Below, piece by piece: positions 1 through 44,144 of a stretch of 64,000 bases of DNA. The stretch is from an uncultured Ignavibacterium sp. (GTDB lineage Bacteria > Bacteroidota > Ignavibacteria > Ch128b). The position numbers and the translations under genes were made by a program. Below the pieces are notes generated by a model. It was not told the origin of the DNA. It worked only from the letters and a program-made list of their open reading frames with translations, and searched no databases. The DNA lies in contig CAYVTW010000001.1 of NCBI GenBank assembly GCA_964454895.1, positions 248,724-312,723 on the forward strand, written 5' to 3'. Position 1 is the first letter of the stretch. Each line of letters starts with the position of its first letter.

Positions 1-1920
1 TTGTTTTTCCTTTCTGCTCGAAATGAAAACAATAAAGGCTGGTTATTTGGTGTGAGACAGCATATGCCCTGGGATTCAGTCTACATTAACCCGGCTAATC
101 CTAATGATATCAGAATTTCAAAATCAGGCGATGATGCGATTGTTCCGATGAATCCTAGTAAAAAATTTAGTGGAACTTTCAAATTAACTATCAAACCGAC
201 ATCAACAATTAAAATTAATTACGATCTTCTCTATTCAAATAACTATATCAAATACTATTCACACGATTTCAAGTACAATCCAGAAGCAGATTATAATTAT
301 TACGAGAAAGGTTTTATCAACTCAATTGATTTTAGACATGCATTGAGTCCGAAAACTTTTTATTCATTTAAAGTAATGTATAACTTCAATGATTATAAAC
401 AATATCTTTATCCATTAGTCGATCAAAATGGTAATGCAGTAGATTACTATCCCGGAAAGGGGACACAAAATTTAAAACCCGATCCACGATATCAACCAAC
501 AGAAAAATTGACACGACCGGTTTCCTATACTTTCTATTTTGGTGGAACGCGTAATGGACATAGTTACGAACGTGCAAGAACTTACGGTGTAAAATTCGAC
601 ATTACAAGTCAAGTTTCGAACGAACATGAGATTAAATTCGGGACAGAATACAAAACACATATTCTTGATTATGAAAGTTTCGTTATAAAAAGAGATACAG
701 TTCGTTACCTTGTGCCAACTATTCCTGATATCACAACTCCTGATCACGATTTGTATACAAAGAAACCTGTTCAGTTTTCAGCATATATTCAGGATAAAAT
801 GGAATATGCCAATTTCATCATGAATATTGGGTTAAGATATGATTATTTTAACTCACGCTCGCAATATTCAACTAATACTCTTTATCCATCTCCAAACGAT
901 CCATCGTTGCCAGTTTATGTTGATAAAAATTCAATTCTTGCAGATGCAACACCTAAACATCAATTAAGTCCAAGATTTGGCGTTTCATTTCCAATAACTG
1001 ATAGAGGAATAATTCACTTTAGCTATGGTCACTTTTTCCAGATGCCCCCTTTTCAATATTTATACACAAATCCAAATTTTAAATCGAGTTATGCAGTAGG
1101 AACACCAATTTTTGGAGATGCTAACCTCAATCCTGAAAAAACAGTGACTTACGAAATAGGCTTGCAACAGCTTCTGCTGGATGATTTGGCACTTACAGTT
1201 ACAGGATATTATAAAGATGTTCGTGATTTACTCGCACTTCAGACTATAAGAGTGAGTAGTGATAGAACTTACTTAAAGTATGTGAATAAGGATTATGGAA
1301 ACATAAAAGGAATAACATTGTCAGTTGTAAAGAGACGAACTCCTGCAAGTCCTCTTGGTGTTACAGTTGATTATACTTTCCAAGTTGCTGAAGGAAACGA
1401 TACAGATCCCGATGCGTTTTTCCTTGATTTATCATCAGGAAGACAAAGTGAAAAAATTCCAGTATTTCTCTCTTGGGACCAGACTCATACTTTGAATACA
1501 ACAGTTACATTCGGTAAAATCAATGATTGGACCGTAACATTTGTTAATAGAATTGGAACAGGTTTGCCCTATACTCCACAAATTACAGGTAAGCAAGTTT
1601 ATGTAAGAACAAATAGCGGAAGAAGACCATCTCAATTTGTTGTTAATCTTTTCGCCGAAAAAGTTTTCAGAATTTTTAACTCTAAGTTGACTGTATTCGC
1701 AAAGATTTACAACTTGTTTGATAATCTTATTGAAAGGCTTGTTTATGATGATACAGGAAGAGCAACTTATACATTACTTCAAACAAGTGGTGCAACAAAA
1801 TCTGCTAAAGAATTATCTGAAAAAATTCCATTAGTAAGACCTCCAGAAGAATATTTCAATCGTCCTCATTATTATCATCCTCCTCGAGAGGTAAGACTTG
1901 GTTTTGAAATTGACTTCTAA
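1..1920 (+). CDS. TonB-dependent receptor, C-terminal barrel part (5'-truncated by window edge)
   Basis: Barrel motifs YIQDKMEY..MNIGLRYDYF, LSPRFGVSFPI, NLNPEKTVTYEIG, NLFD; C-terminal aromatic beta-signal LGFEIDF; colinear with the complete paralog at 35511-38354. Confidence 0.9.
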   Translation: MFFLSARNENNKGWLFGVRQHMPWDSVYINPANPNDIRISKSGDDAIVPMNPSKKFSGTFKLTIKPTSTIKINYDLLYSNNYIKYYSHDFKYNPEADYNYYEKGFINSIDFRHALSPKTFYSFKVMYNFNDYKQYLYPLVDQNGNAVDYYPGKGTQNLKPDPRYQPTEKLTRPVSYTFYFGGTRNGHSYERARTYGVKFDITSQVSNEHEIKFGTEYKTHILDYESFVIKRDTVRYLVPTIPDITTPDHDLYTKKPVQFSAYIQDKMEYANFIMNIGLRYDYFNSRSQYSTNTLYPSPNDPSLPVYVDKNSILADATPKHQLSPRFGVSFPITDRGIIHFSYGHFFQMPPFQYLYTNPNFKSSYAVGTPIFGDANLNPEKTVTYEIGLQQLLLDDLALTVTGYYKDVRDLLALQTIRVSSDRTYLKYVNKDYGNIKGITLSVVKRRTPASPLGVTVDYTFQVAEGNDTDPDAFFLDLSSGRQSEKIPVFLSWDQTHTLNTTVTFGKINDWTVTFVNRIGTGLPYTPQITGKQVYVRTNSGRRPSQFVVNLFAEKVFRIFNSKLTVFAKIYNLFDNLIERLVYDDTGRATYTLLQTSGATKSAKELSEKIPLVRPPEEYFNRPHYYHPPREVRLGFEIDF

Positions 1921-1941
1921 AATTTTGAGGAGTATATAAAT

Positions 1942-4900
1942 ATGAAATTTTTATCATCAATTTTATTTATAATCTTTTTACTTTGTCCAACTTTTCTTAA
2001 TGCTCAACAGAATTCTGCCAAAGAAATTGAACATAAATCCGTTAAAGATCTGATAAACAGTATTTCGATCCAGAATTTAAATTCAAAATCTTACACTTCT
2101 ATCGGTGATTTCCAAAAAGGTGTTGTTAAAAAACTACAAAAGATAAAAGGTCATAAAGATCGTAAGTATTATTTTATGAACGGGAATAAAATCAGCACAA
2201 ATATTTATAATTATGGTGGTATTGCTCCAGGTTATGGACTACTTAGGAATGTGAATAATGTTGTTTGGAGAGGTGTCTCGTATGTTTTTCAATTCTGTCC
2301 ATTTGTTGCTGCTTCTGTTCCAAGTGGATATGATCCAACAAAAAGACTTCACATAGTTTCAGACGGATTATGGGATTATCCAGCATTAAGAGATGTAAGT
2401 CCAACTGGAGATACATTATGGGCCTGGCAACCACTTCCAGGTTATGCTGATCCAAATCAAGAGTTTATAGCATCTAATCCTGCTCCAGATAATGATAATG
2501 ATGGTAAACCAGACTCATGGCCTCGAGAATGGTATAATCCAACACTCGGGAAATATGTATGGCCTGGATATTTAGCACAAGATGCAACGAATGCAGATCT
2601 CGAGGTTTTTTGGGCGATGGACGATCGTGATAATTCTGAATTTCCGTACTGGCCATTCATCAATGATTCAACTCGAAGAGGATTAGGTGTTCAAGTTGAT
2701 GGGAGAGCCTTACAATGGAGTAATGCCCTCGCTGAAAACACAATATTTTTTGTGTATACAATTGCTAATGTTAGTGATAAGAATTTAGACTCAGTTTATT
2801 TCGGAATGTATGGCGATCCGGATCTTGGTGGTGGATTGCCAGCAGATCCGGGTGATGAAGTTCGTGATGATCTTGGATACTTTGTTGCTCCTCACAATTA
2901 CTCGGTACCAGTTTATGCTCGTAGTATGATGTACTTATGGGATAATGATGGAAAAGGGCATTTGGGTTTGCCTGTGGGTTATCTTGGATGTAAATATTTG
3001 GAGTCTCCTTCAAATCCCGGTAACAATTTTGATGACGACGGTGATGGAATGATTGATGAAAGACAGGACGACGGAATTGATAATGACAGAGATTGGAATC
3101 CTCTTGTCGATGATGTTGGCATCGATGGTATTCCAAATACAGGAGATTTCGGTGAAGGTGATGGTTTGCCGACGGCTGGTAAAAGATTACCTGATGGTTC
3201 TCTTGATCCACTTTATCCCGGAGAACCAAATTTTGAGTTAACCGATTTAGATGAATCCGACCAAATTGGTTTAACAAGTTTTAATAGCTGGACATGGGCA
3301 ACCGATAAAGTAGCAAATGATGAATCGATGTGGTATCGTGTTCAAGCAGGTAATTTTAGTGATATTCGTCAACTCGAAGATATTGTTTTCATTTTTGGAA
3401 GTGGCCCTATCACTCTATCTAAAGGTGAAATTAAAAGATTTTCTATGGCACTTTTGTTGGGTGAAAATCTCGATGATTTGTTGACAACTGCTGAAACTGT
3501 TCAAAGAATTTATAATGCAAACTATAGATTTTTTAGACCACCATTGAAACCAAATGTAGTTGCTGTTCCTGGTGATAGAAAAGTTACATTATACTGGGAC
3601 TCTAGAGCCGAAGAAAGTATTGATCCAATTACAGGAAAAGATTTTGAAGGTTATGTTATTTATAGAAGTACTGATCCAACTTTCAATGATATCCAGACAA
3701 TAACAGATGGGAAGGGAGCTAAATTTTTATATGAGCCTCTTAAAGATATACAAGGAAATGAATGTAGATGGGATGTAGACCAAAGACCAGAACCATTTAC
3801 AGACAAAAATGGAAATCTTAAATATGATGTAGGTGAAGAATATGTTGATATTAATGGAAATGGTCAATGGGATCCAATCGCTCCTGACTATTGGAAAGGT
3901 TATCATCCTGTTCCTTATCAAGGAAGGGGCATTCAATATTTCCTTGGAAATAATAGAGGTCTAGTCCATTCATATGTCGATTCTAATAAAGTTATCAATG
4001 GTCAAATTTATTATTACGCTGTAGTTGCTTACGATCATGGTGATTCTTTAGGTATTCCACCAACAGAAACGACAAAGAAAATCACTGTTGATCCAATTAC
4101 AAATCAACTTCAATTTGATGTAAACACTGTAATGGTAATTCCTGGACCAAGAGCAAGTGGATATATTATCACTCCTACAAGCACAAAGAGTTTGGTTAGA
4201 GAAAGTGGTATTGGTAATGGTGATATATCTCTTGAGGTATTAAACGATTTAATTGTTGAACACAATTCTGAATATAGATTATTCTTTAGAGATAGTTTAA
4301 TTAGTGGTAACAGGCGCATTCCGGGAAAAAATTATTCAGTTCTAAAATTGACACCAGTCGTTGATAAAAATATTACTTTCTACGACACCAACTACACAAA
4401 GCTATCTTACCAAAATGTAAGCGATGACAACTATCTCGAAGTAAAGGATGAAAATGGCAGAGTGTATACTATAGGCGTTGATTATGTTATTAATTTTGAA
4501 AGGGGAATAATTCGAAGAACATCTACTAGTTCGATGGCTTTAAATAAGAAATATTCAATCAAATATAGATATTATCCGATCTATCAAAGTCAATTATTAA
4601 ATGGAGAAGATGGTAATCCAACTATTGATGGACTGAAATTAAAGATCGTTGATAATCCAGTCTTAAAAATTGATTCCATAAGAACAGGATGGATTAAAGG
4701 TAAATGCAATTACACCTTCAGGGTCGATCGAGCTACTATCGGAGGCAGAATAATTCCAAACGAAGCTGATTACGAAATACATTTTTCTGATACATTTATC
4801 GATTCTGCAATGATACTTGTTACGGGAAGATTGGTGAAAGTACCAGTAAAATATTCTGTTAAAGATGTGACAACTGGAGTGCCTCAACCAATTTTAACTT

Positions 4901-5481
4901 ATTTAAAAGAAAATGCTTTAACACGAGATACAAACTATACTGCGGGTGAAGAAATTGTTTTCTTTAAACCAGGTTCGACAGGTAGAACAACAGATACAAC
5001 AACTTGGGGAGTGATATTTTTCCAACCTTCTGGCGTTACTCCAATTCCACCTTCTGCTGGTGATGTTTTTTATATTAGAACACTTAGACCATTTAGACCT
5101 GCCGATGTTTTTTATTTCAAAACTGAAGCTTCGAGGTTCGATGCAAATCTGGCAAAATCTAGACTTGATGAAATTATTATAGTTCCAAATCCTTATGTCG
5201 TAGTTAATGATATTGAACCAACGAATAAGTTACCAGGACAAAATCGAGGTGAGAGGAGAATTTACTTTGAAAATCTTCCGCCTGAATGTACTATTAGAAT
5301 TTTTACGCTTGCAGGTGAGCTTGTCCAAACAATTCATCACTTCTCATCATTAGACAACGGAAGGGAATTCTGGAATCTATTAAATCGAGATGGTTTTAGT
5401 GTAGCATATGGAATTTATTTCGCTCATATTGAAGCACCAGGTATTGGTGAGAAACTTCTAAAGTTTGCAATAATAAAGTAA
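1942..5481 (+). CDS. Large secreted protein (1179 aa): signal peptide, DxDxDG Ca-binding-like loops, FN3-like domain, T9SS-CTD/FlgD-Ig-like C-terminus
   Basis: SD GAGGAG; SPI-type signal ending LNA|QQ; PDNDNDGKPD, DDDGDGMIDE, DKNGNLKYD, DINGNGQWD; PPLKPNVVAVPGDRKVTLYWD; terminal VPNPY...IRIFTLAGELV...GIYFAHIE...KFAIIK. Confidence 0.85.
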   Translation: MKFLSSILFIIFLLCPTFLNAQQNSAKEIEHKSVKDLINSISIQNLNSKSYTSIGDFQKGVVKKLQKIKGHKDRKYYFMNGNKISTNIYNYGGIAPGYGLLRNVNNVVWRGVSYVFQFCPFVAASVPSGYDPTKRLHIVSDGLWDYPALRDVSPTGDTLWAWQPLPGYADPNQEFIASNPAPDNDNDGKPDSWPREWYNPTLGKYVWPGYLAQDATNADLEVFWAMDDRDNSEFPYWPFINDSTRRGLGVQVDGRALQWSNALAENTIFFVYTIANVSDKNLDSVYFGMYGDPDLGGGLPADPGDEVRDDLGYFVAPHNYSVPVYARSMMYLWDNDGKGHLGLPVGYLGCKYLESPSNPGNNFDDDGDGMIDERQDDGIDNDRDWNPLVDDVGIDGIPNTGDFGEGDGLPTAGKRLPDGSLDPLYPGEPNFELTDLDESDQIGLTSFNSWTWATDKVANDESMWYRVQAGNFSDIRQLEDIVFIFGSGPITLSKGEIKRFSMALLLGENLDDLLTTAETVQRIYNANYRFFRPPLKPNVVAVPGDRKVTLYWDSRAEESIDPITGKDFEGYVIYRSTDPTFNDIQTITDGKGAKFLYEPLKDIQGNECRWDVDQRPEPFTDKNGNLKYDVGEEYVDINGNGQWDPIAPDYWKGYHPVPYQGRGIQYFLGNNRGLVHSYVDSNKVINGQIYYYAVVAYDHGDSLGIPPTETTKKITVDPITNQLQFDVNTVMVIPGPRASGYIITPTSTKSLVRESGIGNGDISLEVLNDLIVEHNSEYRLFFRDSLISGNRRIPGKNYSVLKLTPVVDKNITFYDTNYTKLSYQNVSDDNYLEVKDENGRVYTIGVDYVINFERGIIRRTSTSSMALNKKYSIKYRYYPIYQSQLLNGEDGNPTIDGLKLKIVDNPVLKIDSIRTGWIKGKCNYTFRVDRATIGGRIIPNEADYEIHFSDTFIDSAMILVTGRLVKVPVKYSVKDVTTGVPQPILTYLKENALTRDTNYTAGEEIVFFKPGSTGRTTDTTTWGVIFFQPSGVTPIPPSAGDVFYIRTLRPFRPADVFYFKTEASRFDANLAKSRLDEIIIVPNPYVVVNDIEPTNKLPGQNRGERRIYFENLPPECTIRIFTLAGELVQTIHHFSSLDNGREFWNLLNRDGFSVAYGIYFAHIEAPGIGEKLLKFAIIK

Positions 5482-5501
5482 ATACTTCAAGGAGTTTTAA
5501 G

Positions 5502-6524
5502 ATGAAGAAATTATTTATCTACTTAGTATTGGTTTTTGTTCTAGTTCTTAGCAATGCATACTCTCAATTTGGAGCGAATTTAACTAAGACAGGTACAACA
5601 GCAGCTCAATTCTTGAAGATTGGAGTTGGCTCGAGAGCTCTGGGAATGGGTGGAGCATTTGTCGCTTCCTCGAATGATGTTTCGGCTATTTATTGGAATC
5701 CAGCAGGAATTGCTCTGATCAATGATAGAGAAGCTGCTTTTAATCATGTCGATTGGTTAATGGATGTGGTTTATGATCATGCTGCTTTCGCAATGAACTT
5801 TGGTGATTTTGGGACTCTCGGTGCTTTTGTTGGTGTTATGTCAATGGGTGAAATGCTTGTGAGAACTGTTGAAAAACCGGAAGGAACGGGTGAATACTTT
5901 GGCGCTGGAGCTATGACAATTGGCTTATCTTATGCTAGAAATCTCACTGAAAATTTTGCAATAGGGTTTAATGCTAAATACTTACGAGAATATATATGGA
6001 ACGAATCTGCACAAGGATTCGCTCTTGATATTGGTACATTTTACCGAATTCAATTCTTGAACGAAACAAGACTTGCTGCGAGCATTTCGAATTTTGGAAC
6101 TAAGATGAAACTCTCGGGAAGAGATCTACTAGTTTTGACTAATACTGGTCCTGGTGGTGCGAATATTATCAATACTGAACATCAAGTAGATGCATTCGAT
6201 TTGCCTTTGATGTTTAGGATTGGTGTCGCTATTGATGCAATTAAATCTGAGCAAATGAGATTAACAATTGAAACTAATGCTATCCATCCTAATGATAATA
6301 CTGAATATGTGAACACTGGATTTGAATACGCTTGGAATGAAAGAATATTTTTGAGAGCAGGTTACAAATCTCTTTTTGAAAGAGATACTGAACAAGGCTT
6401 CACTTGGGGACTTGGTTTGAACTATCGTCTTGTCGATTTAGTTACACTAAAGTTCGATTATGCTTATCAAGATTTCGGAAGATTGAAAAATGTTCATTAT
6501 CTAACCGTTGGTGTAAATTTTTAA
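5502..6524 (+). CDS. PorV/PorQ-family (UPF0164-like) outer-membrane beta-barrel
   Basis: SD AAGGAG; signal peptide; AAQFLKIGVGSRALGMGGAF..YWNPAG signature; C-terminal F (TVGVNF). Confidence 0.85.
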   Translation: MKKLFIYLVLVFVLVLSNAYSQFGANLTKTGTTAAQFLKIGVGSRALGMGGAFVASSNDVSAIYWNPAGIALINDREAAFNHVDWLMDVVYDHAAFAMNFGDFGTLGAFVGVMSMGEMLVRTVEKPEGTGEYFGAGAMTIGLSYARNLTENFAIGFNAKYLREYIWNESAQGFALDIGTFYRIQFLNETRLAASISNFGTKMKLSGRDLLVLTNTGPGGANIINTEHQVDAFDLPLMFRIGVAIDAIKSEQMRLTIETNAIHPNDNTEYVNTGFEYAWNERIFLRAGYKSLFERDTEQGFTWGLGLNYRLVDLVTLKFDYAYQDFGRLKNVHYLTVGVNF

Positions 6525-6691: not shown

Positions 6692-6775
6692 GCCGAAGTG
6701 GCGGAATTGGCAGACGCGCATGATTCAGGGTCATGTGGGAGAAATCCCGTAGGGGTTCGAGTCCCCTCTTCGGCA
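6692..6775 (+). tRNA. tRNA-Leu(CAG)
   Basis: Acceptor GCCGAAG/CTTCGGC; anticodon stem CATGA/TCATG with loop TTCAGGG; long variable arm; T-loop TTCGAGT; CCA not encoded. Confidence 0.95.
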
Positions 6776-6792
6776 CAATTAAATTATCCACC

Positions 6793-7650
6793 ATGATAAA
6801 TCAGTTTGTAGAGAGCTCATATCATTACTGCTTGGATCTAGCAAAAAAACATTACGAAAATTTCCCGGTTGCCTCTCTTTTAATTCCGGCAGAAAAGCGA
6901 AAATTTATTGCAGCAGTTTATGCATTTGCGAGAATAGCCGATGATTTAGCAGACGAGGGAAATTTATCTAAAGAAAAAAGAATTTATCAGTTGATTAAGT
7001 ATAAAGATTATTTTGTAAATAAAATTATTTCTGATGAATATCCTCATCTACTTGCACTTTATGATACTATCCTAAAAAACAATCTCACAGAAAAAAATTT
7101 TACTGATCTAATTGATGCATTTATTCAGGATAATAAAATAAACAAATACAAAACTTTTGAAGAGGTTTTTGACTATTGTTCTAGATCAGCTAATCCAATC
7201 GGTAGAATTTTGCTTGAGATTTTTGATATTAGAGATGATGAAGCTAAACAGCACTCAGATGAGATCTGTACAGCACTTCAACTAACAAATTTCTATCAAG
7301 ATTTAAGTATAGATATTAACAATGATCGTTTCTATATTCCAGCTGATATTCTGTCAAAGTTTGAACTCAATTATGATGAGCTTGTTAAATTCAATACTAC
7401 AAAACAAGTCAATAAAAATTTTCAATGGATGATGAAATATCTACTTGATGTAAATTATAAACTATTTAATGATGGTGAAAAACTTTTGAACTATCTTCAT
7501 GGTTTATTCAAATTTGAGATTAAATTAACTATTAATGGTGGTAGAGAAATACTGAACAAGATAAAAGAGATAAATTATAATCCTTTCTATCATCGTCCGC
7601 TTCTTAAAAAAACTGATTGGGCGAAAATCATACTTAAAAGTTTAATCTAA
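6793..7650 (+). CDS. hpnC: Squalene synthase HpnC
   Basis: HYENFPVAS, YAFARIADDLADE, YCSRSANPIGR, LQLTNFYQD; start moved to ATG 6793 because the ORF-track start at 6733 lies inside tRNA-Leu. Confidence 0.85.
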   Translation: MINQFVESSYHYCLDLAKKHYENFPVASLLIPAEKRKFIAAVYAFARIADDLADEGNLSKEKRIYQLIKYKDYFVNKIISDEYPHLLALYDTILKNNLTEKNFTDLIDAFIQDNKINKYKTFEEVFDYCSRSANPIGRILLEIFDIRDDEAKQHSDEICTALQLTNFYQDLSIDINNDRFYIPADILSKFELNYDELVKFNTTKQVNKNFQWMMKYLLDVNYKLFNDGEKLLNYLHGLFKFEIKLTINGGREILNKIKEINYNPFYHRPLLKKTDWAKIILKSLI

Positions 7651-8492
7651 TGGGCAGATCAATCGAAGAAAATATCACAAGTAGGAGTGGAAGTAGTTTC
7701 TACTACACTTTTCTCTTCCTTCCTAAAAAAAAGAAGAAGGCAATGCACATTGTTTATGCATTTTGTCGAGTAACCGATGACATTGCTGATGCAACAGATG
7801 AAAACGATGAAGAAAAGTTAACCAAACTGGAAGAATGGAAGGAAGAATTGTTCACTGCCATTAAAGCTCGTTCTAAATTTGAAATGTTAAACCATCTTGC
7901 TGAAGTTATTCGTGAATTAAAAATGTCTGTTGATCCTTTTTTTGATTTGATCGAAGGAATGAGAATGGATTTGACAAAAAAAAGATATGCAACCTTTGAA
8001 GAGCTAAAAATTTATTGCTATCGTGTTGCTTCAACTATTGGATTGATGTCTATTGAACTTTTTGGATACAAGAATCCGGCGAGTCGAAATTATGCTTACA
8101 ATCTTGGTATTGCCATGCAATTGACGAACATTCTTAGAGATATTAAAGAAGATTTGAAAAAAGATAGAATTTATATTCCACAGGAAGATTTGGAACGATT
8201 TAATTATTCTGAAGATGAACTTAAACAAGCTATTATGAACGAATCATTTTTTAATTTGATGAAGTTCGAAGTGGAAAGAGCAGAATATTTTTATAATGAA
8301 GCCAATAGATATTTTCAAAAGGATGATCAAAAAGTATTGGCGATGGGTAGGGCAATGCAAGAAATTTATTGTAAGATTTTAAGGAATATTAAAAAGAATA
8401 ACTTTAATGTTTTTACACGCAATAATAATCTCAATAAACTTGAAAGAATGATAGTGACAATTAAAAATTTTGCAAAGTATAATCTATTCTAA
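7650..8492 (+). CDS. hpnD: Presqualene diphosphate synthase HpnD
   Basis: SGSSFYYTF, YAFCRVTDDIAD, YCYRVASTIG, QLTNILRDIKED; TAATG coupling to hpnC. Confidence 0.85.
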   Translation: MGRSIEENITSRSGSSFYYTFLFLPKKKKKAMHIVYAFCRVTDDIADATDENDEEKLTKLEEWKEELFTAIKARSKFEMLNHLAEVIRELKMSVDPFFDLIEGMRMDLTKKRYATFEELKIYCYRVASTIGLMSIELFGYKNPASRNYAYNLGIAMQLTNILRDIKEDLKKDRIYIPQEDLERFNYSEDELKQAIMNESFFNLMKFEVERAEYFYNEANRYFQKDDQKVLAMGRAMQEIYCKILRNIKKNNFNVFTRNNNLNKLERMIVTIKNFAKYNLF

Positions 8493-8493
8493 T

Positions 8494-9795
8494 ATGAAAA
8501 GCGTTATAATCATTGGTGGAGGATTAGCTGGACTTTCCGCAGCAGTTAACTTATCAGAAAAAGGATTTGAGATAACTTTAATTGAAAGTTCTCCTCAATT
8601 AGGAGGTCGTTCTAAATCATTTTTTCTAAATGAGTGGAACTCTTTTTTAGACAATGGGCAACATCTTTTAATCAAAGGGTATGAAAAAACTCTAGAGTTG
8701 ATAAAAAGAGTTGGTGCTGAGAAAAATTTTGAATTTCAAAACGAATTCGCGATAACCTTTCGTGATAGATTCAATAGTGAATGGAAATTCCAGATTTCAA
8801 ATTTTCCAGACACTATCTTAGCCTTTCTCATGTTTCGTAATTTGAGTATTAATGAAAAATTCCAACTGTTAAAATTCTTCATTCAACTGAAACAAATCAA
8901 TCCGAAATATTTTAGTGAAATTGATGCTTTAAGCTTTTTGAGAAAAGTAAAACAAAGTGAAAATCTTATTAACAATTTTTGGAAGCTAATCGTTGAATCA
9001 GCTTTGAACACTCCTTTAGAAAAAGCTTCAACTGAAATATTTCTTTCTGTGTTAATAAAAATGTTCGTCGAAGATAGAACAAATTCTTTTTTTGTAATTC
9101 CAAAGAAATCTCTTCATGAATCTTTGATAAATCCCATCGAAAATTATTTGACTCAAAAAGGTGTAAGGATAATTAGAAATAGAAGTGTCGAAAAAATTAA
9201 TTATCAGAATGATTATGTAATAGATGTAGTTTCAAGGGATCAATCGTTACAAGCTGATTTTTATATTATAGCTGTTCATCCTGCCGTTGTCAATAAACTC
9301 ATAGCTGAGTATAAAATTGATTTATCTTATCAGTCCATAATCAATCTTCACTTAAAAATTTATCCTAAAGAACTTAAAAACAAATTTTTTGCATTATGGA
9401 ACTCAGAAATACATTGGATATTTTTTCACGAAAATTACTTAACAGCAGTAAGAAGCTCTGCAGATCAATTTTCTAAACTTTCTAATGAAGAAATATTTGA
9501 AACATTTGTGAATGAATTGATTGATTTCTTCCCCGAATTAAATGATGATTTGAAAGAACTCCTTTCTCGTGGTAAAGACTATATTGTTATCAGAGAAAAA
9601 AGGGCGACATTCATTTCGGATACTACTTCTACTAAAATCCGTCCTTCCACAATTACAAAATATAAGAATGTGTTTCTTGCTGGAGATTATGTGGATACTG
9701 GCCTTCCATCAACAATTGAGAGTGCAGTTGTAAGTGGTATGTTAGCTGCTGAAAAAGTTTGTGATGCAATATCGAAGAATGAGACTATATCTTAA
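8494..9795 (+). CDS. hpnE: Hydroxysqualene dehydroxylase HpnE (FAD-dependent)
   Basis: GGGLAGLSAA Rossmann motif, LGGR, DNGQH, LAGDYVDTGLPSTIESAVVSG; third gene after hpnCD; ATG at 8494 directly after the hpnD stop. Confidence 0.85.
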   Translation: MKSVIIIGGGLAGLSAAVNLSEKGFEITLIESSPQLGGRSKSFFLNEWNSFLDNGQHLLIKGYEKTLELIKRVGAEKNFEFQNEFAITFRDRFNSEWKFQISNFPDTILAFLMFRNLSINEKFQLLKFFIQLKQINPKYFSEIDALSFLRKVKQSENLINNFWKLIVESALNTPLEKASTEIFLSVLIKMFVEDRTNSFFVIPKKSLHESLINPIENYLTQKGVRIIRNRSVEKINYQNDYVIDVVSRDQSLQADFYIIAVHPAVVNKLIAEYKIDLSYQSIINLHLKIYPKELKNKFFALWNSEIHWIFFHENYLTAVRSSADQFSKLSNEEIFETFVNELIDFFPELNDDLKELLSRGKDYIVIREKRATFISDTTSTKIRPSTITKYKNVFLAGDYVDTGLPSTIESAVVSGMLAAEKVCDAISKNETIS

Positions 9796-14114: not shown

Positions 14115-14196
14115 TTTTATCTAACAAGATAATTATCCTTTCACTATTGCTTCAGATTTCTATTTTGAATAATTTGATTTAGAGAGATTAAACAAG

Positions 14197-19003: not shown

Positions 19004-19033
19004 TTATCTTTAAATTGAAAGGAGGTGCATGTC

Positions 19034-31095: not shown

Positions 31096-31096
31096 G

Positions 31097-32400: not shown

Positions 32401-32420
32401 ATATAAATTATTAAAGAAAA

Positions 32421-35510: not shown

Positions 35511-38354
35511 ATGATCAAAAAATTATTTTTTGCCTTCCTAACATTAGCACAATTAGTTGGATTAATTTATGCAGGCAACACAGGAAAAATTGCCGGAAAG
35601 GTTATTGACAGAGAAACAAGAGAGCCAATCCCATTTGCTAATGTTATTGTAGAAGGAACTCAACTTGGTGCTGCTACTAATCTCAATGGTGAATTTGTTA
35701 TTCTCAATGTTCCACCAGGAGTTTATACAGTAACTGCATCTGTAGTTGGGTATCAAAAAAAATCAATCACTGAGGTTCGAGTTAATGTTGATTTTACAAC
35801 AAGGCTTGAATTTCAACTAACTCAAGGCTCGATTGATTTACCACCCGTTGTTGTACAGGGTGAGAGAAATCCTTTAATAAGACAAGATTTAACTAATCCT
35901 GTTGCATCTATCACAAGCGATAAAATTGATGAGTTGCCAGTGGATCAGATTGCTGATGTGATAAAACTACAAGCTGGTGTTGTTGTTGGTAACGATGGTG
36001 ATATTCATATTCGTGGTGGATATGGAAACGAGATCGCTTATACTCTAAACGGTATAACTTTGAATGATCCATATGGAAATCGAAGATCTGTTGGACTTGC
36101 TACCAATGCTGTTCAAGAAGTTTCGGTTTCAAGTGGAACTTTTAGTGCCGAGTATGGAAATGCTCTATCTGGTGTAGTCAATTATGTTACGAAAGAGGGT
36201 CCTTCAAAATACACAGGTAGTATTAGAGCATATTCTGGTGATTATGTGACTAAACGGAATGATCTTTTCGAAAATATTGATGAAATAAATCCACTTAATA
36301 GGGCAAGAACTGAATTTACTTTTGGTGGTCCTTTACCAGTGCTTTTTAGTAGAAATGTAAATTTCTTTATTTCCTCAGTATATGAAGATTTCAAAGGTTC
36401 ACTGTATGGGAAAAGACTATATAGACCTGCAGATTCATACCTTGAAAGAAATAATTTTAGATCAAGTGATCCTAGAAGTGGAAAATCTACTGATCCATAT
36501 TTCTTCAACCCATATAGCAAAGACTCGACGGGACTTCCCACAGGTGATGGCGCTTGGGTTCCTATGAATTGGTCGAGGAATTTTAATTTCCAAAGTAATT
36601 TTATAATCAAGCCATTACCAACAATTAAATTTAAGTATGAATATGTATTTGAGAAAGGAACATCTCAGGATTTTGATAGATCATATAAATACAATCCCGA
36701 TGGAAGACCAACAAATTATACCAATGGATATATTCATGCATTCGACTGGACCCATACAATTTCTAATAATGTTTTTTACACACTGAAGATGTCTTATTCT
36801 GATAATTATGCCAAATCTTATTTATATGAAAGTCCTTATGATGAACGATACTTACCTTCACTCTATGCAAGATCGATTGGAAACACAACATTTCTCGCAG
36901 GCGGAACTGATAATTCGAGATTTTTCAGAAGGACACAAACTTTAGGTGTTAAAGGAGATCTGGTTGCTCAGTTGTTCGATGTTCATGAGGTAAAAGTTGG
37001 ATTCGAAATCAGAAAACATAGGTTAAATGTAGAAAGTTATACAGTACAGGTCGGATATATAAATGAGCGAGGATTATTTACAACATTAACCCCAGCTATT
37101 TTATTGTATGATTCTGTTCAACTTGTAAGAAGAATACCTACTGATACATCACTCTACACTAGTTATGAAAGATTACCTTTACAAGCGGCAGCTTACATTC
37201 AAGATAAAATAGAATTAGCCGCATCAATGATTTTAAATGTTGGTTTAAGATATGAATTCTTTAATCCAGCTGCTCAATACAACCCATATGTTAGTAAAGA
37301 TTTGAGTGAATTAAAAGCAGGATCTATAACAAAAAGTGCAGCCGACGCAAAACCAAAGCATAGATTAAGTCCGAGAGTAAGTGTTTCTTACCCAATCACC
37401 GATAGAGGAGTGATAAGATTTTCTTATGGACACTTCTACCAAATACCTTCATTAGCGAGTCTTTATCGAAATCCATTCTTTTATGTTGCTAACTTCGGAG
37501 AGAATCCAACTTTTGGTAATCCAAATGTCGAACCTCAACGAAGTGTTCAATATGAGCTTGGTTTACAACAACTTCTCTTGGATGATTTAAAACTTGAAGT
37601 GACAGGATTTTATAAAGATGTAAGCAATTACATTTACACACAACAAATTTATACAAATGAAGGAAGAGCATTTTATCTTCTCACAAATCTTGCTTATTCA
37701 AGTAGTAAAGGAATAACAATTTCTTTATTAAAAAGGAGATCTCCGCAAGATTTCTTCTCTGCTTCACTTGACTATACTTTTTCACTTGCTGAAGGAAATA
37801 GAACATATCCATCAGATGAATTATTCTTTAGTGAAAAAAGTGGAAAGCAGAGTGAGACTTACCTCGTTCCTTTTAGTTTTGATAGAAGTCATGTGATTAA
37901 TGCAACTTTAGCTTTCACTCAACCAAATAATTGGATCGCTTCATTCATTGGTTATTTCCAAACTGGAACTCCTTATACTCCAATTTTCCCGTCTAATATT
38001 GTAGATATTACTTTTGAACAAAACTCTGCAAGACAACCCATTCAATGGAATGTTGATTTTAAATTCGAAAAATTCTTCATGCTTGGCAATTTGAAACTCT
38101 CTCTGTTTGCGCAAATTGAAAATTTATTCGATAATGAAAACGAGTTATATGTCTACGCATCTACTGGTCGAGCTTTAAGTGCAATAGAAGAAAAAGATAT
38201 TAATATTGTTTTCTCTGATATGTTGAGAAGAATTAAAAGAGGTGATGCAGGATTGGTGCCTATGAGTGAAATAGAAAGATATTATTCACTTCGACCAGAG
38301 AGGATCAATCGGCCCCGTGAAATTCGTTTAGGTTTTCAATTAATATTTAACTGA
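35511..38354 (+). CDS. TonB-dependent receptor with CarboxypepD_reg-like N-terminal extension and plug
   Basis: Signal peptide; GKIAGKVID..EPIPFANV; plug HIRGG..NGI..DP..FSAEYGNALSGVVN; barrel; terminal LGFQLIFN. Confidence 0.92.
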   Translation: MIKKLFFAFLTLAQLVGLIYAGNTGKIAGKVIDRETREPIPFANVIVEGTQLGAATNLNGEFVILNVPPGVYTVTASVVGYQKKSITEVRVNVDFTTRLEFQLTQGSIDLPPVVVQGERNPLIRQDLTNPVASITSDKIDELPVDQIADVIKLQAGVVVGNDGDIHIRGGYGNEIAYTLNGITLNDPYGNRRSVGLATNAVQEVSVSSGTFSAEYGNALSGVVNYVTKEGPSKYTGSIRAYSGDYVTKRNDLFENIDEINPLNRARTEFTFGGPLPVLFSRNVNFFISSVYEDFKGSLYGKRLYRPADSYLERNNFRSSDPRSGKSTDPYFFNPYSKDSTGLPTGDGAWVPMNWSRNFNFQSNFIIKPLPTIKFKYEYVFEKGTSQDFDRSYKYNPDGRPTNYTNGYIHAFDWTHTISNNVFYTLKMSYSDNYAKSYLYESPYDERYLPSLYARSIGNTTFLAGGTDNSRFFRRTQTLGVKGDLVAQLFDVHEVKVGFEIRKHRLNVESYTVQVGYINERGLFTTLTPAILLYDSVQLVRRIPTDTSLYTSYERLPLQAAAYIQDKIELAASMILNVGLRYEFFNPAAQYNPYVSKDLSELKAGSITKSAADAKPKHRLSPRVSVSYPITDRGVIRFSYGHFYQIPSLASLYRNPFFYVANFGENPTFGNPNVEPQRSVQYELGLQQLLLDDLKLEVTGFYKDVSNYIYTQQIYTNEGRAFYLLTNLAYSSSKGITISLLKRRSPQDFFSASLDYTFSLAEGNRTYPSDELFFSEKSGKQSETYLVPFSFDRSHVINATLAFTQPNNWIASFIGYFQTGTPYTPIFPSNIVDITFEQNSARQPIQWNVDFKFEKFFMLGNLKLSLFAQIENLFDNENELYVYASTGRALSAIEEKDINIVFSDMLRRIKRGDAGLVPMSEIERYYSLRPERINRPREIRLGFQLIFN

Positions 38355-38374
38355 ACTTCTAAAGGAGAAGAACG

Positions 38375-41300
38375 ATGAGAAAAAGAATAATTCTTCCTTT
38401 TATCCTGATTTTGGCTCTCGCAATAAATCTTGTTGCACAGAATAAAGATCAGTATGGAAATTATATCTTAAAAGAATTGACTGAAAAACAAGCTTTACAA
38501 TTATTTGGTAAACCAGGAGAAAGGCTCGCAAAATCGCTAGGTAATCCTAATCTTATCAAAGAAAGTATAATTCAAGGCAATAAAGTAAAAACAGTTTTAT
38601 TTAATTATGGTTCGATCTGTGCACCAAACTATTTAGGAAACATAGCTGACTTAGTATGGAATGGATTAGGATATGGTTTCGAATTTGGTCCTCTTGCAGC
38701 AGCTGAAGTAGTAAATGGAAGAGGTGATACTTTACGAATTGTTGACGATTCCTTTATCAGAACATTTCAAGGTGACTATGACCCATCAGGAAGGATAAAA
38801 TGGGGATGGCTTCCAAAAGATGGATATGTTGATCCAAATCAAAATGAAATTGCTAGATTAAATGCACCTGATAATAATGGAGATGGAAAACCGGATAGCT
38901 GGCCCGAAAACTGGTATAATCCCGGTGCAGGTAAATATCTCTGGCCAGCATTTTTAGGTGATCAAGCAACTGCTCCTGATGAAGAAGTTTATTTTGTTAT
39001 TGATGATTATACAAATGCTGAATTTCCTTATTATCCTTTTCCAAATGATTCTTCAAAAAGAGGTCTTGGATTAGATATGGAAGTTCGTGTTCTTCAGTTT
39101 AACAACCCATTAGCTGAAGATATTGTATTTTTAGTTTATCAAACAACAAACGCAAGTCCACGAACCTTACCAAGAGTATATTTTGGAATGCACGGCGACC
39201 CACATGTTGGTGGCCCAGCTAATTATAGTGATGATAGAGCTTTCTTTATTCCGCCTGCTGGTCCTTTAGCCGATCCATATCCTCAAAGATCAAGAAGTAT
39301 GGTTTATGCTTGGGATGATGATATGAAAGGTGATGGAGGTAAATGGTGTGGCTACTTTGGTTGGAAATTTCTCGAAAGCCCAAGCCAGCATACAGATGCT
39401 AAAGACAACGATGATGATGGGATTACTGATGAAAGTCCATTTAATGATGCTGGTTTCTATATCGATGGAGTTCAATATCCATTGACATATGGAATTTCAA
39501 ATGTTACAAAGTACAGAGAAATCTATGGCGCACCGAAACCAAGGTGGTCGGGTGATGAAGATGGTGATTGGGATCCCGCTATACATGATATTGGAATTGA
39601 TGGAATTGGTCCAGATTCTCCCAACTATCCTGGACCAGATTATGGCGAAGGTGATGGCAAACCAACTCAAGCTTGGTATTTAGATGTTAATGGCAACGGA
39701 AAATATGATGTAGGTGAACCAATTTCTGAAATCAGACTGCCTGGTTATAAATGGGCAGGTTCGGAACCTCACTTTGGATTAAGAGATATTTCAGAATCTG
39801 ATCAATTAGGATTAACAAGTTTTCATGCTGCGGTTTATACTAATTCACTTCCCAATGTTCCAATGAATGATGAGTTGATGTGGGAATGGTTATCCAGTGA
39901 AACAATTGATCCAAACCAGGAATTACTACAGCAACCTGGTGATAATGTTTTTAACTTTGGGACTGGTCCATTCAAGCTTGAACCTGGTGAAACACAAAGA
40001 TTTTCAATGTGTATCTTGTTTGGAGAGAATTTAAATGATTTGGTATTAAATGCTGAAATATCTACAAGAATCCTTGAAGCAGACTATCGCTTTGCTCAAC
40101 CTCCAGCTAAACCTGTTGTTACTGCTGTCCCTGGTGATGGTCGTGTAACGTTGTTCTGGGATACTAGAGCAGAACAGTCAGTAGATCCACTTACCGGATT
40201 AAAAGATTTTCAAGGGTACAAAATATATAGAAGCCAAGATCCAAAATTTACAGATGTTTTTAAGATAACTGATGGAAACGGAGTTCCATATCTTGGTGTT
40301 CCATTATTCGATCCAAATACCGGCAAATATGCACAGTTTGACTTAATTGACTCTCTAAAAGGATTTCATCCTGTTGAATATATGGGAAGAGGTATTAAAT
40401 ATTGGATTGGCAATAATACAGGTTTAGTTCATGAATATGTTGACTCAACTGTTAAAAATGGTATTACATATTATTATGCTGTAGTATCATACGATGGTGG
40501 ATCACTTGTACCAGGTAGGGAATTACCTCCATCGGAATCACCTATGGTAATAATGCAAGATCCGATCACTGGTGAATTGAAATTTGATGTTAACACCGTA
40601 ATGGTTACGCCAGGGCCAAGAGCAAGAGGAACTCTAACTGATTTAAATAATAATTTAACCATCCAACAACAAAGAGGTATTTCTACGGGTAAAATAGCTG
40701 TTAAAACTTATGACAGCAAAGCAGTTAAAGATGGTAACGAATATCTGGTTGAATTCACATCAACCGATAAATTTAATTTGACAAATTTGACAGGTGTAAC
40801 CGACAAAATTATTTCAAAGGATACGATTTTAGTAAATCTATCGTATCAAAATATTATTCTCAGCAGCGTTGTTGTAAAAGATGAAGCTGGTAATGTAGTT
40901 CCGAATTCTAAATATTTAATTGCACCAACTACTGGGAAAATTAGAGGCATAAATCCCGGAGATCTCGCAGCTGGAACAACTTATTATGTTACATATAAAT
41001 ATTACCCAATCTATCAAAGCAATTATATTAATGGCGAGGATGCAAATCCTACTTTCGATGGAATGAGATTATTTTTATATAATGATACACTTGGTATAGA
41101 TAGAAAGAATTCTGGTTGGGTTTCAGGTAAAAAAACTAATCTGAGAGATACTATAATTTGGGTTCCTCGTACTGTCTCTCCTGCTAATCCACATTTACCA
41201 ACTGACCTTGATTTCAAAATTGAATTTACCAGCATGGATACTCTCACCAATGGAAGATATTCACAACCAGGTGACACTGTACGCAATCAATCAAATCAAT

Positions 41301-41932
41301 TAACTGTTTGTCCATTTAATATCACAATTGCAACTCAAGATTCTATGTTAGGTCGAAAAGCTGACTACTTAATCTTCGAAGGTATTGCTGCAACTCGAGG
41401 TAATGGAAGATGGGATCCAGGTGAAGATATAATATTTTTCCCAAGAGTAAGAGATAGATTAAGAACATCCTATCAGGTTACATTCTCTCTGCCTGCCGGT
41501 ACTTTTGTTCCACCTCAGGGCGATGTTTATTACTTAAGAACTACTAAACCTTTTAAGCCAGGAGATCAATTTTATTTCAAGACGATTGGTGAAAAATTCG
41601 ATAAGCAACTTGCGAAGAGTCAGCTTGAAAATATTTATGTAGTTCCTAATCCTTATGTCGCATTTTCTGATGCAGAACAACCAGCACGCCAACCGAATCG
41701 TAGAGGTGAAAAAGTACTTCAATTTAGAAATCTGCCAAAAGAATGTACAATTAGAATTTACACAATTGCTGGCGAGCTTGTTCAAACACTTCATAAGAAT
41801 GATGATGGAAGTATTCTTAACTGGGATTTATTAAGTTATGAAGGGATGAGAATAGCATATGGTGTTTACATCTATCATGTTGATGCTCCAGGTGTTGGTG
41901 AAAAGATTGGTCGATTTGCAGTAATTAAATAA
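38375..41932 (+). CDS. Large secreted protein (1185 aa), paralog of 1942-5481
   Basis: SD AAGGAG; signal peptide (LVA|QN); PDNNGDGKPDSW, DVNGNGKYD; FN3-like PVVTAVPGDGRVTLFWD; C-terminal VVPNPY..IRIYTIAGELV..GVYIYHV..RFAVIK. Confidence 0.85.
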   Translation: MRKRIILPFILILALAINLVAQNKDQYGNYILKELTEKQALQLFGKPGERLAKSLGNPNLIKESIIQGNKVKTVLFNYGSICAPNYLGNIADLVWNGLGYGFEFGPLAAAEVVNGRGDTLRIVDDSFIRTFQGDYDPSGRIKWGWLPKDGYVDPNQNEIARLNAPDNNGDGKPDSWPENWYNPGAGKYLWPAFLGDQATAPDEEVYFVIDDYTNAEFPYYPFPNDSSKRGLGLDMEVRVLQFNNPLAEDIVFLVYQTTNASPRTLPRVYFGMHGDPHVGGPANYSDDRAFFIPPAGPLADPYPQRSRSMVYAWDDDMKGDGGKWCGYFGWKFLESPSQHTDAKDNDDDGITDESPFNDAGFYIDGVQYPLTYGISNVTKYREIYGAPKPRWSGDEDGDWDPAIHDIGIDGIGPDSPNYPGPDYGEGDGKPTQAWYLDVNGNGKYDVGEPISEIRLPGYKWAGSEPHFGLRDISESDQLGLTSFHAAVYTNSLPNVPMNDELMWEWLSSETIDPNQELLQQPGDNVFNFGTGPFKLEPGETQRFSMCILFGENLNDLVLNAEISTRILEADYRFAQPPAKPVVTAVPGDGRVTLFWDTRAEQSVDPLTGLKDFQGYKIYRSQDPKFTDVFKITDGNGVPYLGVPLFDPNTGKYAQFDLIDSLKGFHPVEYMGRGIKYWIGNNTGLVHEYVDSTVKNGITYYYAVVSYDGGSLVPGRELPPSESPMVIMQDPITGELKFDVNTVMVTPGPRARGTLTDLNNNLTIQQQRGISTGKIAVKTYDSKAVKDGNEYLVEFTSTDKFNLTNLTGVTDKIISKDTILVNLSYQNIILSSVVVKDEAGNVVPNSKYLIAPTTGKIRGINPGDLAAGTTYYVTYKYYPIYQSNYINGEDANPTFDGMRLFLYNDTLGIDRKNSGWVSGKKTNLRDTIIWVPRTVSPANPHLPTDLDFKIEFTSMDTLTNGRYSQPGDTVRNQSNQLTVCPFNITIATQDSMLGRKADYLIFEGIAATRGNGRWDPGEDIIFFPRVRDRLRTSYQVTFSLPAGTFVPPQGDVYYLRTTKPFKPGDQFYFKTIGEKFDKQLAKSQLENIYVVPNPYVAFSDAEQPARQPNRRGEKVLQFRNLPKECTIRIYTIAGELVQTLHKNDDGSILNWDLLSYEGMRIAYGVYIYHVDAPGVGEKIGRFAVIK

Positions 41933-41943
41933 AATTACGGAGA

Positions 41944-42981
41944 ATGAAAATGAGAAAATTAATTTTAATCTCGGCAATTATAGTTGGAATTACTGTGTCC
42001 CTTTCATTTGCTCAACTGGATAGAAGCACATCGAAAGTTGGAACTACCGCTGCAACTTTTTTGAAGATCAATGCTGGAGCTCGTGCAATTGGTATGGCTG
42101 GCGCTTTTGCTGCAATGGAAAATGACATTTATTCAATTTATTACAACCCAGCTGGTATATCTAGAATTAGTGGTACAGGTGCTGCAGCTTTCAATCATGC
42201 AAATTGGTTAGCGGATATGAGTTATGATTTTGCAGCTCTTGCATTGAATTTAGGAGATGTTGGGAGTATTGCTTTAAGTTTAACTTCTTTTCGTGTCCCT
42301 GAGGAAAAAGTTCGAACATTTGATAATCCCGAAGGCGATGGAAGATATTGGGATGCAAGTTCACTTGCTTTGGGTTTATCTTATGCAAGAAATTTAACCG
42401 ATAATTTTTCGATTGGTTTTAATTTCAAATACATTAGAGAGCAGGTTTGGGATATGAACGCTAGCTCAATCTCTCTCGATGCTGGTACAATGTACACAAC
42501 ACCATTCAATGGTTTAAGAATAGGTGCTAGCATTTCTAACTTTGGGACTAAAATGAAGCTTGAGGGAAGAAATACTTATTTTAATATCGATCCAAACAAT
42601 GATCCTAATTCAGGTCCTAATAATATACCTGCCGAACATCGTTTAGCTTATTATGATATTCCACTTTCGTTTAGAGTAGGACTAGCAATGGAAGTGATAA
42701 AATCACAATTATTAACTGTTACAACTTCGGTTGACGCAGTTCATCCTAACGACAACACCGAATATCTGAATCTTGGTCTAGAACTCAATTTCAATAATAA
42801 TTTTTATGCAAGAGGTGGTTATAAATCATTATTCCTAAGAGATAGCGAACAAAGCTTTACTTTTGGTTTTGGTTTGAATTATCCAATTGTAAATGATATC
42901 GGAATCTCGTTGAATTATGGCTTTGCTGATTATGGAAGATTGAAAGCAGTTCAATTTTTAGATGTTATTGTGAAATTTTAA
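41944..42981 (+). CDS. PorV/PorQ-family outer-membrane beta-barrel, paralog of 5502-6524
   Basis: AATFLKINAGARAIGMAGAF..YYNPAG; terminal VIVKF; true start may be ATG 41950 by SD spacing. Confidence 0.85.
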   Translation: MKMRKLILISAIIVGITVSLSFAQLDRSTSKVGTTAATFLKINAGARAIGMAGAFAAMENDIYSIYYNPAGISRISGTGAAAFNHANWLADMSYDFAALALNLGDVGSIALSLTSFRVPEEKVRTFDNPEGDGRYWDASSLALGLSYARNLTDNFSIGFNFKYIREQVWDMNASSISLDAGTMYTTPFNGLRIGASISNFGTKMKLEGRNTYFNIDPNNDPNSGPNNIPAEHRLAYYDIPLSFRVGLAMEVIKSQLLTVTTSVDAVHPNDNTEYLNLGLELNFNNNFYARGGYKSLFLRDSEQSFTFGFGLNYPIVNDIGISLNYGFADYGRLKAVQFLDVIVKF

Positions 42982-44099: not shown

Positions 44100-44122
44100 A
44101 AAAACCCCACCGAAGTGGGGTT
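44100..44122 (-). terminator. Intrinsic terminator of the csp gene
   Basis: Minus strand AACCCCAC-TTCG-GTGGGGTT then T-run; C(UUCG)G tetraloop. Confidence 0.85.
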
Positions 44123-44144
44123 CATCAATCATGTTTACTTTCTA

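Follow-up and report, generated by a model that had tools for sequence, protein, structure and literature searches.

Two gene triads for a TonB-dependent receptor, a giant secreted protein and a PorV-family barrel in an Ignavibacterium genome: a candidate SusD-free nutrient-capture module

A 64-kb stretch of DNA from an uncultured Ignavibacterium sp. (contig CAYVTW010000001.1; G+C content ~33%), called the window below, carries two copies of a gene triad encoding a TonB-dependent receptor, a giant secreted protein and an outer-membrane barrel of the PorV/PorQ family. We propose, at a probability of about 0.45, that each triad is an operon for a self-contained, SusD-free outer-membrane module for nutrient capture, whose surface partner is held by a PorV paralog of its own. 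In homologue searches, the best relatives of the window proteins came from metagenome-assembled genomes (MAGs) of Ignavibacteria. The parts of the two triads are listed here with the evidence for each assignment.

1..1920, + strand: triad 1 TonB-dependent receptor, C-terminal 639 amino acids (aa), cut by the window start (PF00593, 3.4e-31)
1942..5481, + strand: triad 1 giant secreted protein, 1179 aa, from the map of open reading frames (ORFs); without Pfam or NCBIfam family
5173..5478, + strand: C-terminal domain of giant 1 (residues 1078-1179), a divergent beta-sandwich tail resembling type IX secretion system (T9SS) tails (sub-threshold matches; 151 bits with a hidden Markov model of the family tail)
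5502..6524, + strand: triad 1 PorV/PorQ-family outer-membrane barrel, 340 aa (NF033709, 233.9 bits)
35511..38354, + strand: triad 2 TonB-dependent receptor, 947 aa (CarboxypepD_reg, plug and barrel by Pfam and NCBIfam)
38375..41932, + strand: triad 2 giant secreted protein, 1185 aa (homology to copy 1; AlphaFold2 (AF2) model)
38462..40114, + strand: N-terminal region of giant 2 (residues 30-580), a predicted beta-supersandwich with DxDxDG-type acidic loops (AF2 and Foldseek)
41633..41929, + strand: C-terminal domain of giant 2 (residues 1087-1185), tail class as in giant 1 (TIGR04183, 20.2 bits)
41944..42981, + strand: triad 2 PorV/PorQ-family barrel, 345 aa (NF033709, 200.3 bits)

An earlier, sequence-only reading of this DNA had described three closely spaced envelope genes on one strand with Shine-Dalgarno sites, and the same gene order in heavily diverged form at 35511-42981. 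Both descriptions stand. Genes are separated by 21, 20, 20 and 11 nt in the two triads, and Shine-Dalgarno sites (GAGGAG, AAGGAG and AAGGAG) are found ahead of genes 2 and 3; together, the tight gaps and these sites indicate co-transcription of each triad. Barrel 2 has two in-frame ATGs (41944 and 41950) with a GGAG 7 nt before the second, which is likely to be the true start. A scan for promoters and terminators around triad 2 returned sites no more frequently than in shuffled sequence, and no riboswitch was found upstream of the receptors in the window or in five related loci. Between the two copies, identity is 38% for the receptors, 41% for the giants and 48% for the barrels, with homology spanning the full lengths and E-values from 9e-117 to 0, so the recurrence of the trio is a matter of homology and not of chance. 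The 639 aa of receptor 1 align to residues 285-946 of receptor 2; ~285-300 N-terminal residues of receptor 1 fall upstream of the window.

We then looked at how far the trio extends. Searched against 1.84 billion representatives (clusters at 50% identity), a profile of the giant family matched 8519 clusters with the threshold at E<=1e-3; with E<=1e-30, it matched 1214. Scanning species-representative genomes gave at least 568 loci with the giant family, 80 of which were kept; their lineage labels are Ignavibacteria/Melioribacteraceae, Rhodothermales, Kryptoniota, Neomarinimicrobiota, Calditrichota and KSB1. When the three window proteins were searched against all loci and the ORFs parsed, 71 triads were recovered from 83 related loci. 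The order receptor, giant, barrel is kept wherever the flank suffices, and the triad loci cover at least six phylum- or class-level lineages. Exceptions in layout are an insertion of ~3.7 kb before the barrel (one locus) and two tandem triads (four loci). Seven much more distant members of the giant family (927-1585 aa, some with Reg_prop propeller repeats) are all flanked by a CarboxypepD_reg-type receptor on one side and by a PorV-family gene on the other. When flanking ORFs were clustered all against all, general recurrence proved to be limited to the three genes of the triad. The sequence-only reading had put the trio forward as a candidate machine in its own right, and across the 83 related loci and all seven distant relatives it indeed recurs as a self-contained module, one that is probably ancient in the Fibrobacteres-Chlorobi-Bacteroidetes (FCB) group. 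Ignavibacteria-like triads (up to 55% identity) were also seen on contigs labelled Paceibacterota, Victivallales, Acidobacteriota and Caldisericaceae (loci L010, L055, L082 and L083); these contigs are probably mis-binned and do not represent true occurrences.

The three proteins diverge together. Mantel tests on pairwise distance matrices from 58 complete triads gave r of 0.94 for receptor and giant, 0.88 for giant and barrel, and 0.92 for receptor and barrel, and none of 2000 permutations reached the observed values. When each of the three proteins was clustered, the groupings mostly agreed, with adjusted Rand indices that reach 0.91 and vary with the tree cut; no clear partner swapping was seen in them, and most disagreements look like different cut levels. 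Incongruent trees with free reshuffling, which the sequence-only reading had named as evidence against a dedicated complex, are thus not what these loci display. Each window copy has its own orthologue group, that of copy 1 extending to Kryptoniota and to a Calditrichae MAG at ~50-59% identity. Separate orthologue groups with concordant divergence argue that whole modules were duplicated long ago and have stayed together unshuffled.

The first gene of the triad encodes a bona fide TonB-dependent transporter outside the SusC/RagA family. Receptor 2 consists of a CarboxypepD_reg extension (residues 27-115), a plug (residues 125-222; PF07715 Plug, 1.7e-11) and a barrel (PF00593 TonB_dep_Rec_b-barrel, 1.5e-26). 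Receptor 1 matches PF00593, and its plug region falls outside the window. Reading the sequence by eye gives a TonB-box-like PVVVQG at ~residues 111-116, in the stretch that separates the CarboxypepD_reg domain from the plug. With the SusC/RagA model TIGR04056 the receptor scores 61.5 bits against a curated cutoff of 368.25, and the N-terminal extension alone matches. There is also a partial match to PF25183 OMP_b-brl_4 (62 bits). No solved structure matched the receptor beyond the plug.

The second gene encodes a Sec-exported, non-lipidated protein of ~130 kDa that combines a supersandwich, Ig/Fn3-like domains, a fast-evolving middle and a conserved C-terminal beta-sandwich. Both giants begin with a type I signal peptide (...A/Q; in giant 1, ...LNA/QQ), and neither signal peptide has a lipobox cysteine in the right context, so that another anchor is needed. 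Neither giant matches any Pfam or NCBIfam family, SusD included. Orthologues of giant 1 (58-89% identical) are all named 'hypothetical protein', as is every family member for which a source gave a name. The AF2 model of giant 2 residues 30-580, built from an 89-sequence alignment, has a mean predicted local distance difference test score (pLDDT) of 91.0 and a predicted template-modelling score (pTM) of 0.90. Foldseek matched this region to the N-terminal beta-sandwich domains of GH116 beta-glucosidase, GH94 phosphorylases and GH174 fucanase, as well as to a PL26 lyase and the YidC P1 domain (E ~1e-4, probability 1.0, template-modelling (TM) score ~0.3). On this model, the N-terminal domain is confidently predicted to be a beta-supersandwich of the kind found in glycoside hydrolase (GH) N-domains. 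It contains several invariant DxDxDG-like acidic clusters, many invariant Trp, and invariant Asp and Glu residues; the acidic loops are calcium-type. A peptidase reading was considered and rejected, there being no HEXXH and no invariant pattern of His, Cys or Ser, which makes a binding role seem more likely than hydrolysis.

The model of the whole giant is of lower confidence. For whole giant 2, modelled from 18 sequences (pLDDT 60.7, pTM 0.39), the C-terminal half is beta-rich and Ig/Fn3-like. Foldseek with this model returned generic Ig/Fn3 arrays at TM ~0.07, uninformative apart from PorZ at rank 3. Mean pairwise identity is 50% in the N-terminal region, 55% in the Fn3-like region, 29% in the middle (741-1075) and 55% in the tail. 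Among 22 diverse members of the family, Pfam detected Reg_prop in three, weak FlgD_ig and CHU_C, and no enzyme domain.

The last ~100 residues of the giant form a tail that is as conserved as the Fn3-like region, and more can be said of it. Its consensus reads VVPNPYV..E..RGER..F.NLP..CTIRIYT..GElV...W.LL...G..iAYGiYiYHv.APG.GE.iGKFAiIK, with the terminal Lys invariant in the family alignment. The best matches are the C-termini of PorZ and PorU, the two T9SS proteins that remain attached to PorQ and PorV: giant 2 scores 24 bits with PorZ and 17.9 bits with PorU, and giant 1 scores 20.2 bits with PorZ, below threshold. When the giant-family profile was compared with sequences of the PDB, the PorZ tail in 5m11 was the sole match (E 0.11). 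In hhalign, the tail aligned with four canonical tails from the same loci over 45 columns (75.8% probability, E 2.3e-5). Motifs of the type A pattern are visible (VVPNPY, IRIYT..GE.V, AYG.Y.YH and the terminal K), and the tail differs from the canonical ones by a conserved insert of ~15-20 aa (RGER..F.NLP). It does not match PF18962 in either giant, and as a type B tail it fails as well (CHU_C, E 0.054, below threshold). The sequence-only reading had called the giants bearers of a T9SS C-terminal domain (CTD). The apparent homology to type A tails partly supports this, but membership of the curated type A family does not follow, as TIGR04183, with its cutoff of 23, gives 20.2 bits for copy 2 and 12.9 bits for copy 1. 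On sequence comparison, then, the tail is a distinct class, probably a remote homologue of type A sorting domains.

Among the sampled loci, the special tail is confined to members of the giant family whose genes lie between those of the receptor and the PorV-like barrel; secreted neighbours in the same loci carry canonical type A tails (Pfam Por_Secre_tail). A tail class of the giants' own next to canonical tails on their neighbours is what a dedicated carrier or anchor predicts. Of the conserved CTD residues, translocon structures place just one, a Lys near the C-terminus, in contact with PorV (PMC10994853), and the invariant terminal Lys of the giants would be compatible, by analogy, with such a contact. 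In locus L086 a second giant-family gene (12956-15427), with a Laminin_G_3 domain and the special tail, sits between the first giant and the PorV-like gene, so one barrel may serve two cargo proteins there.

The third gene encodes a 14-strand FadL/PorV-type barrel of its own subfamily. Both barrels exceed the cutoffs of the PorV/PorQ family model NF033709 (233.9 and 200.3 bits, cutoff 90) and of PF19572 PorV (47.9 and 39 bits, cutoff 27), but they fall short of the equivalog models for PorV (NF033710; 92.7 and 79.1 bits, cutoff 250), PorQ (NF033711; 91.6 and 76.4 bits, cutoff 220) and PorV2 (NF052325; 82.9 and 76.0 bits, cutoff 325). Passing the family model and failing all three equivalogs sets the barrels apart as a subfamily within the PorV family, present in several copies per genome; the dedicated PorV paralog that had been suggested for each triad is accordingly a member of this subfamily, neither PorV nor PorQ. 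The nearest solved structure to barrel 1 is Flavobacterium johnsoniae PorV (6h3i_F, E 1.3e-11), and a homologue search with the barrel returned close orthologues only.

The PorV family belongs to the FadL superfamily, and the barrels have weak Pfam matches to Toluene_X and UPF0164. The third gene could on this account be a FadL-type channel for a hydrophobic or amphipathic product, with the giant processing the substrate and the two barrels importing different products. FadL homologues do vary in role, BamG being an example (PMC12578637). We consider such a channel very unlikely: PorV/PorQ is by far the best match (234 bits) and PorV the nearest structure, tail binding accounts better for the special tail that the neighbouring protein carries, and no lipid-metabolism genes recur in the loci.

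How a protein of this size reaches the surface bears on a further alternative, in which the receptor itself exports the giant by TonB power and the PorV-like barrel anchors the tail, making up a minimal T9SS-like path without PorKLMN. In Myxococcus, the Oar transporter is required for PopC secretion, and the triad receptor might be an exporter of this kind. The receptor is of the CarboxypepD_reg type, non-SusC and partially matched by OMP_b-brl_4, its linkage to the giant is strict, and the tail class is distinct from canonical type A. Of the T9SS proteins, one BLAST survey detected SprA, PorV and Plug alone in Ignavibacterium and Melioribacter (PMC11705866). All this would suit receptor-driven export. 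Yet a 22-strand plugged barrel would have to pass a multidomain protein of 130 kDa, the canonical type A tails in the same loci imply a working T9SS, and the catabolic neighbours described below fit import, which makes export through the receptor quite unlikely. No T9SS core gene was found within the window. For Rhodothermales, in which the triad also occurs, McBride and Zhu reportedly described full T9SS gene sets in 2013, which likewise speaks against receptor-driven export. CAZymes (carbohydrate-active enzymes) of Melioribacter carry Por tails (PMC3534657).

Gene neighbourhoods of the relatives give an indication of substrate. An FG-GAP repeat protein (~610-690 aa) with a canonical T9SS type A tail adjoins the triad in ~33 of 92 loci, and its usual place is immediately upstream of the receptor gene (e.g. 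L009:1003-2934 and L026:1012-2967). It was missed by the all-against-all clustering and found through its tail; the window has none, and any copy belonging to triad 1 would have to be located before the window start. In 10 Rhodothermales-type loci the barrel gene is directly followed by one for a T9SS-tailed N-acetylmuramoyl-L-alanine amidase (Amidase_2), as in these examples.

L026:10195-11898: amidase, directly 3' of the PorV-like gene
L049:10472-12106: amidase, directly 3' of the PorV-like gene

Two Kryptoniota loci have a BadF/BadG-type ATPase (sugar-kinase-like), a GH3-beta-lactamase-fold fusion and an SSF transporter. L085 and L050 encode GH18/GH85 together with the exo-beta-N-acetylmuramidase NamZ (PMC8054146), and L085 an S66 LD-carboxypeptidase as well. 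Beside the triad of L086 stand a sugar ABC transporter and GH94. Features of polysaccharide utilisation loci are thus partly present in L085, L086, L035 and the Rhodothermales-type loci, and absent beside the window triads. The catabolic neighbours of these relatives point to import of polymer-derived sugars. Peptidoglycan or amino sugars are a recurrent theme in three independent lineages, and the gene content hints at scavenging of such material.

The surroundings of the window triads are of another kind. As had been noted from the sequence, no SusD, CAZyme or peptidase gene is adjacent to either triad, judging by Pfam and NCBIfam matches of the neighbours. Triad 1 is followed at 6733-9795 (+) by hpnC/hpnD/hpnE-like genes, two SQS_PSY proteins and a flavin amine-oxidase-type protein; hpnC-hpnD-hpnE is the bacterial three-step squalene route. 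A tRNA-Leu(CAG) at 6692-6776 (+) overlaps the first of these (listed ORF 6733-7650, HpnC-like squalene synthase), whose Pfam match starts at residue 38, so that its real start codon must lie further downstream. On the opposite strand, ~3 kb downstream of triad 1, there is a gene of the class A beta-lactamase family at 9802-10707 (-) (Beta-lactamase2, 1.6e-51). At 19025-20101 (+), a baeRF_family3 protein (archaeo-eukaryotic release factor family 3, 2e-22) adjoins tRNA-Cys and tRNA-Gly. Genes for mreB, mreC, (mreD), PBP2 and rodA occupy 30070-35442 (+), and 68 nt separate their end from the receptor of triad 2, which is on the strand of these genes. Because it is absent from orthologous loci, this arrangement was rejected as a functional clue for triad 2. 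After triad 2 comes an HhH-GPD/endonuclease III-like glycosylase (42991-43740, +). Copy-2-type triads in 10 other loci are likewise followed by this gene, a conserved synteny with no obvious functional link. The next ~900 nt (43741-44657) contain no ORF of at least 80 aa and terminator-like hairpins on both strands (44102-44123, 44162-44177 and 44322-44338); an Rfam search of this interval returned nothing.

Envelope and housekeeping surroundings could also suggest that giant and barrel are a surface coat or adhesin pair, that is, an anchored S-layer, adhesin or envelope-maintenance factor with a receptor that is co-transcribed or structural. Besides the mreB-mreC-PBP2-rodA genes before triad 2, bamA-skp-lpxD-lpxC-lpxA is found upstream in L001, and the window triads have neither regulators nor catabolic genes. 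The giants are rich in Ig/Fn3 domains with calcium loops, Foldseek with the full model returns adhesins and S-layer proteins, and the FG-GAP repeat T9SS protein is a frequent fourth neighbour. We hold this to be unlikely, given that the receptor is kept in every triad across phyla and shows its tightest co-divergence with the giant, that its plug is intact and a TonB-box-like motif is present, and that envelope-gene neighbourhoods are not conserved between orthologous loci.

The nutrient-capture module that we favour would work as follows. As their signal peptides show, all three proteins pass the inner membrane by Sec; both barrels insert into the outer membrane, as is usual for their families, and the giant would be exported by the type IX route. 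It would stay surface-bound non-covalently, its special tail held by the cognate PorV-like barrel in analogy to PorZ-PorQ, PorU-PorV and SprB-SprF. The N-terminal supersandwich and the variable middle may capture substrate for the adjacent transporter, as linkage and catabolic contexts suggest, and the giant would thereby take the role that the lipoprotein SusD, or another surface protein that binds glycans, has beside SusC. The carbohydrate and peptidoglycan contexts of relatives fit such a SusD-like role (PMC9530828). The substrates are likely to be glycans, and in several lineages they may be derived from peptidoglycan or amino sugars.

Several observations weigh against this proposal. Both window triads lie amid housekeeping genes, with no CAZyme, regulator or riboswitch near either of them. 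The fold match of the giant is at the domain level only (TM ~0.3), and no catalytic or binding site was identified in it. Its tail scores below the type A cutoff, and the BLAST survey cited above makes the export route in this lineage uncertain. Co-divergence is also expected from simple operon linkage, and in a partial Mantel test tail-specific co-evolution with the barrel beyond shared history was absent (r 0.009). Finally, orthologues are 55-65% identical across families, which speaks for one conserved core function rather than for diversifying glycan specificity.

A wider claim can be framed, namely that the giants' tails are a third class of T9SS-type sorting signal which, together with cognate PorV-like carriers, builds a lipoprotein-free, SusD-free TonB uptake complex throughout the non-Bacteroidia phyla of the FCB group, the ancestral substrate being perhaps peptidoglycan or amino-sugar polymers from dead cells. 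A bolder version still would have the TonB-dependent receptor itself as the exporter of the giant. We regard the wider claim as possible but doubtful. The module is in any case very common and unannotated (8519 clusters, at least 568 loci). If the nutrient-capture reading is true, it would explain polymer capture in Ignavibacteria, Rhodothermales, Marinimicrobia, Calditrichota and Kryptoniota, which are abundant environmental lineages, and would bear on the turnover of necromass and polysaccharides in sediments, bioreactors and the ocean. Relatives occur in MAGs of Rhodothermales, Melioribacter and Ignavibacterium, and direct testing is possible if cultured strains carry the module.

Among known systems, SusC/SusD resembles the triad in that a CarboxypepD_reg-extended TonB-dependent transporter is encoded directly upstream of a surface-exposed partner; some triad relatives are, moreover, found near secreted glycan- or peptidoglycan-degrading enzymes and inner-membrane sugar transporters (PMC9530828). 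In contrast to SusC, the triad receptor fails the SusC/RagA model, and the window copies have no nearby CAZymes or regulators. The partner is neither SusD-like nor a lipoprotein and is three times larger, and a third gene, the PorV-family barrel, is obligatory in the triad.

PorZ-PorQ and PorU-PorV of Porphyromonas gingivalis likewise pair a surface protein with a PorV/PorQ-family barrel. The giants' tails match the C-termini of PorZ and PorU best, and PorZ ranks third in the fold search. PorZ carries Reg_prop beta-propeller repeats, and such repeats are found in some distant members of the giant family. However, the triad barrels fail the PorV and PorQ equivalogs, triads occur several per genome, each with a TonB-dependent receptor, and outside the tail the giants have no detectable similarity to PorZ or PorU.

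For T9SS cargo with type B tails, PorP/SprF proteins are established as the cognate carrier barrels (PMC12618676, PMC9143113). SprB-SprF of F. johnsoniae shares with the triad a very large secreted protein with a non-standard tail and its own barrel adjacent; in pairs of this type (PMC12618676, PMC9143113) the barrel is needed for secretion and surface anchorage, and several paralogous pairs occur per genome, as is the case for triads. The triad differs in that its barrel is of the PorV/PorQ family (FadL-like) and not PorP/SprF, its tail is type-A-like and not type B, and a TonB-dependent receptor is part of the unit.

The sequence-only reading knew of no characterised system with this layout. 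We found no characterisation of the trio, the giant family or the tail class in the literature searched, so this part holds; the layout itself has nevertheless been drawn before, unexplained, in a figure of the Rhodothermus marinus alginate locus, where a TonB receptor, a T9SS-tailed protein and a PorV/PorQ-family protein stand beside lyases (PMC9530828, Fig. 2). The middle gene there, which encodes 726 aa, may belong to the giant family; Rhodothermales MAGs carry clear giant-family members. In the R. marinus xylan locus, a receptor is followed by a Por-tailed hypothetical protein (PMC6987092, Table 1). Both papers label these genes hypothetical and propose no role for them (PMC9530828, PMC6987092).

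Each part of the triad is of a kind known already, be it the TonB-dependent transporter and its surface partner or the T9SS cargo protein and its cognate carrier barrel. To our knowledge, almost all understanding of TonB-dependent uptake that involves a surface partner comes from SusCD of Bacteroidia and from proteobacterial receptors, and type B tails are the only ones for which dedicated T9SS carriers have been described. If our reading is true, the module joins both themes in a single unit.

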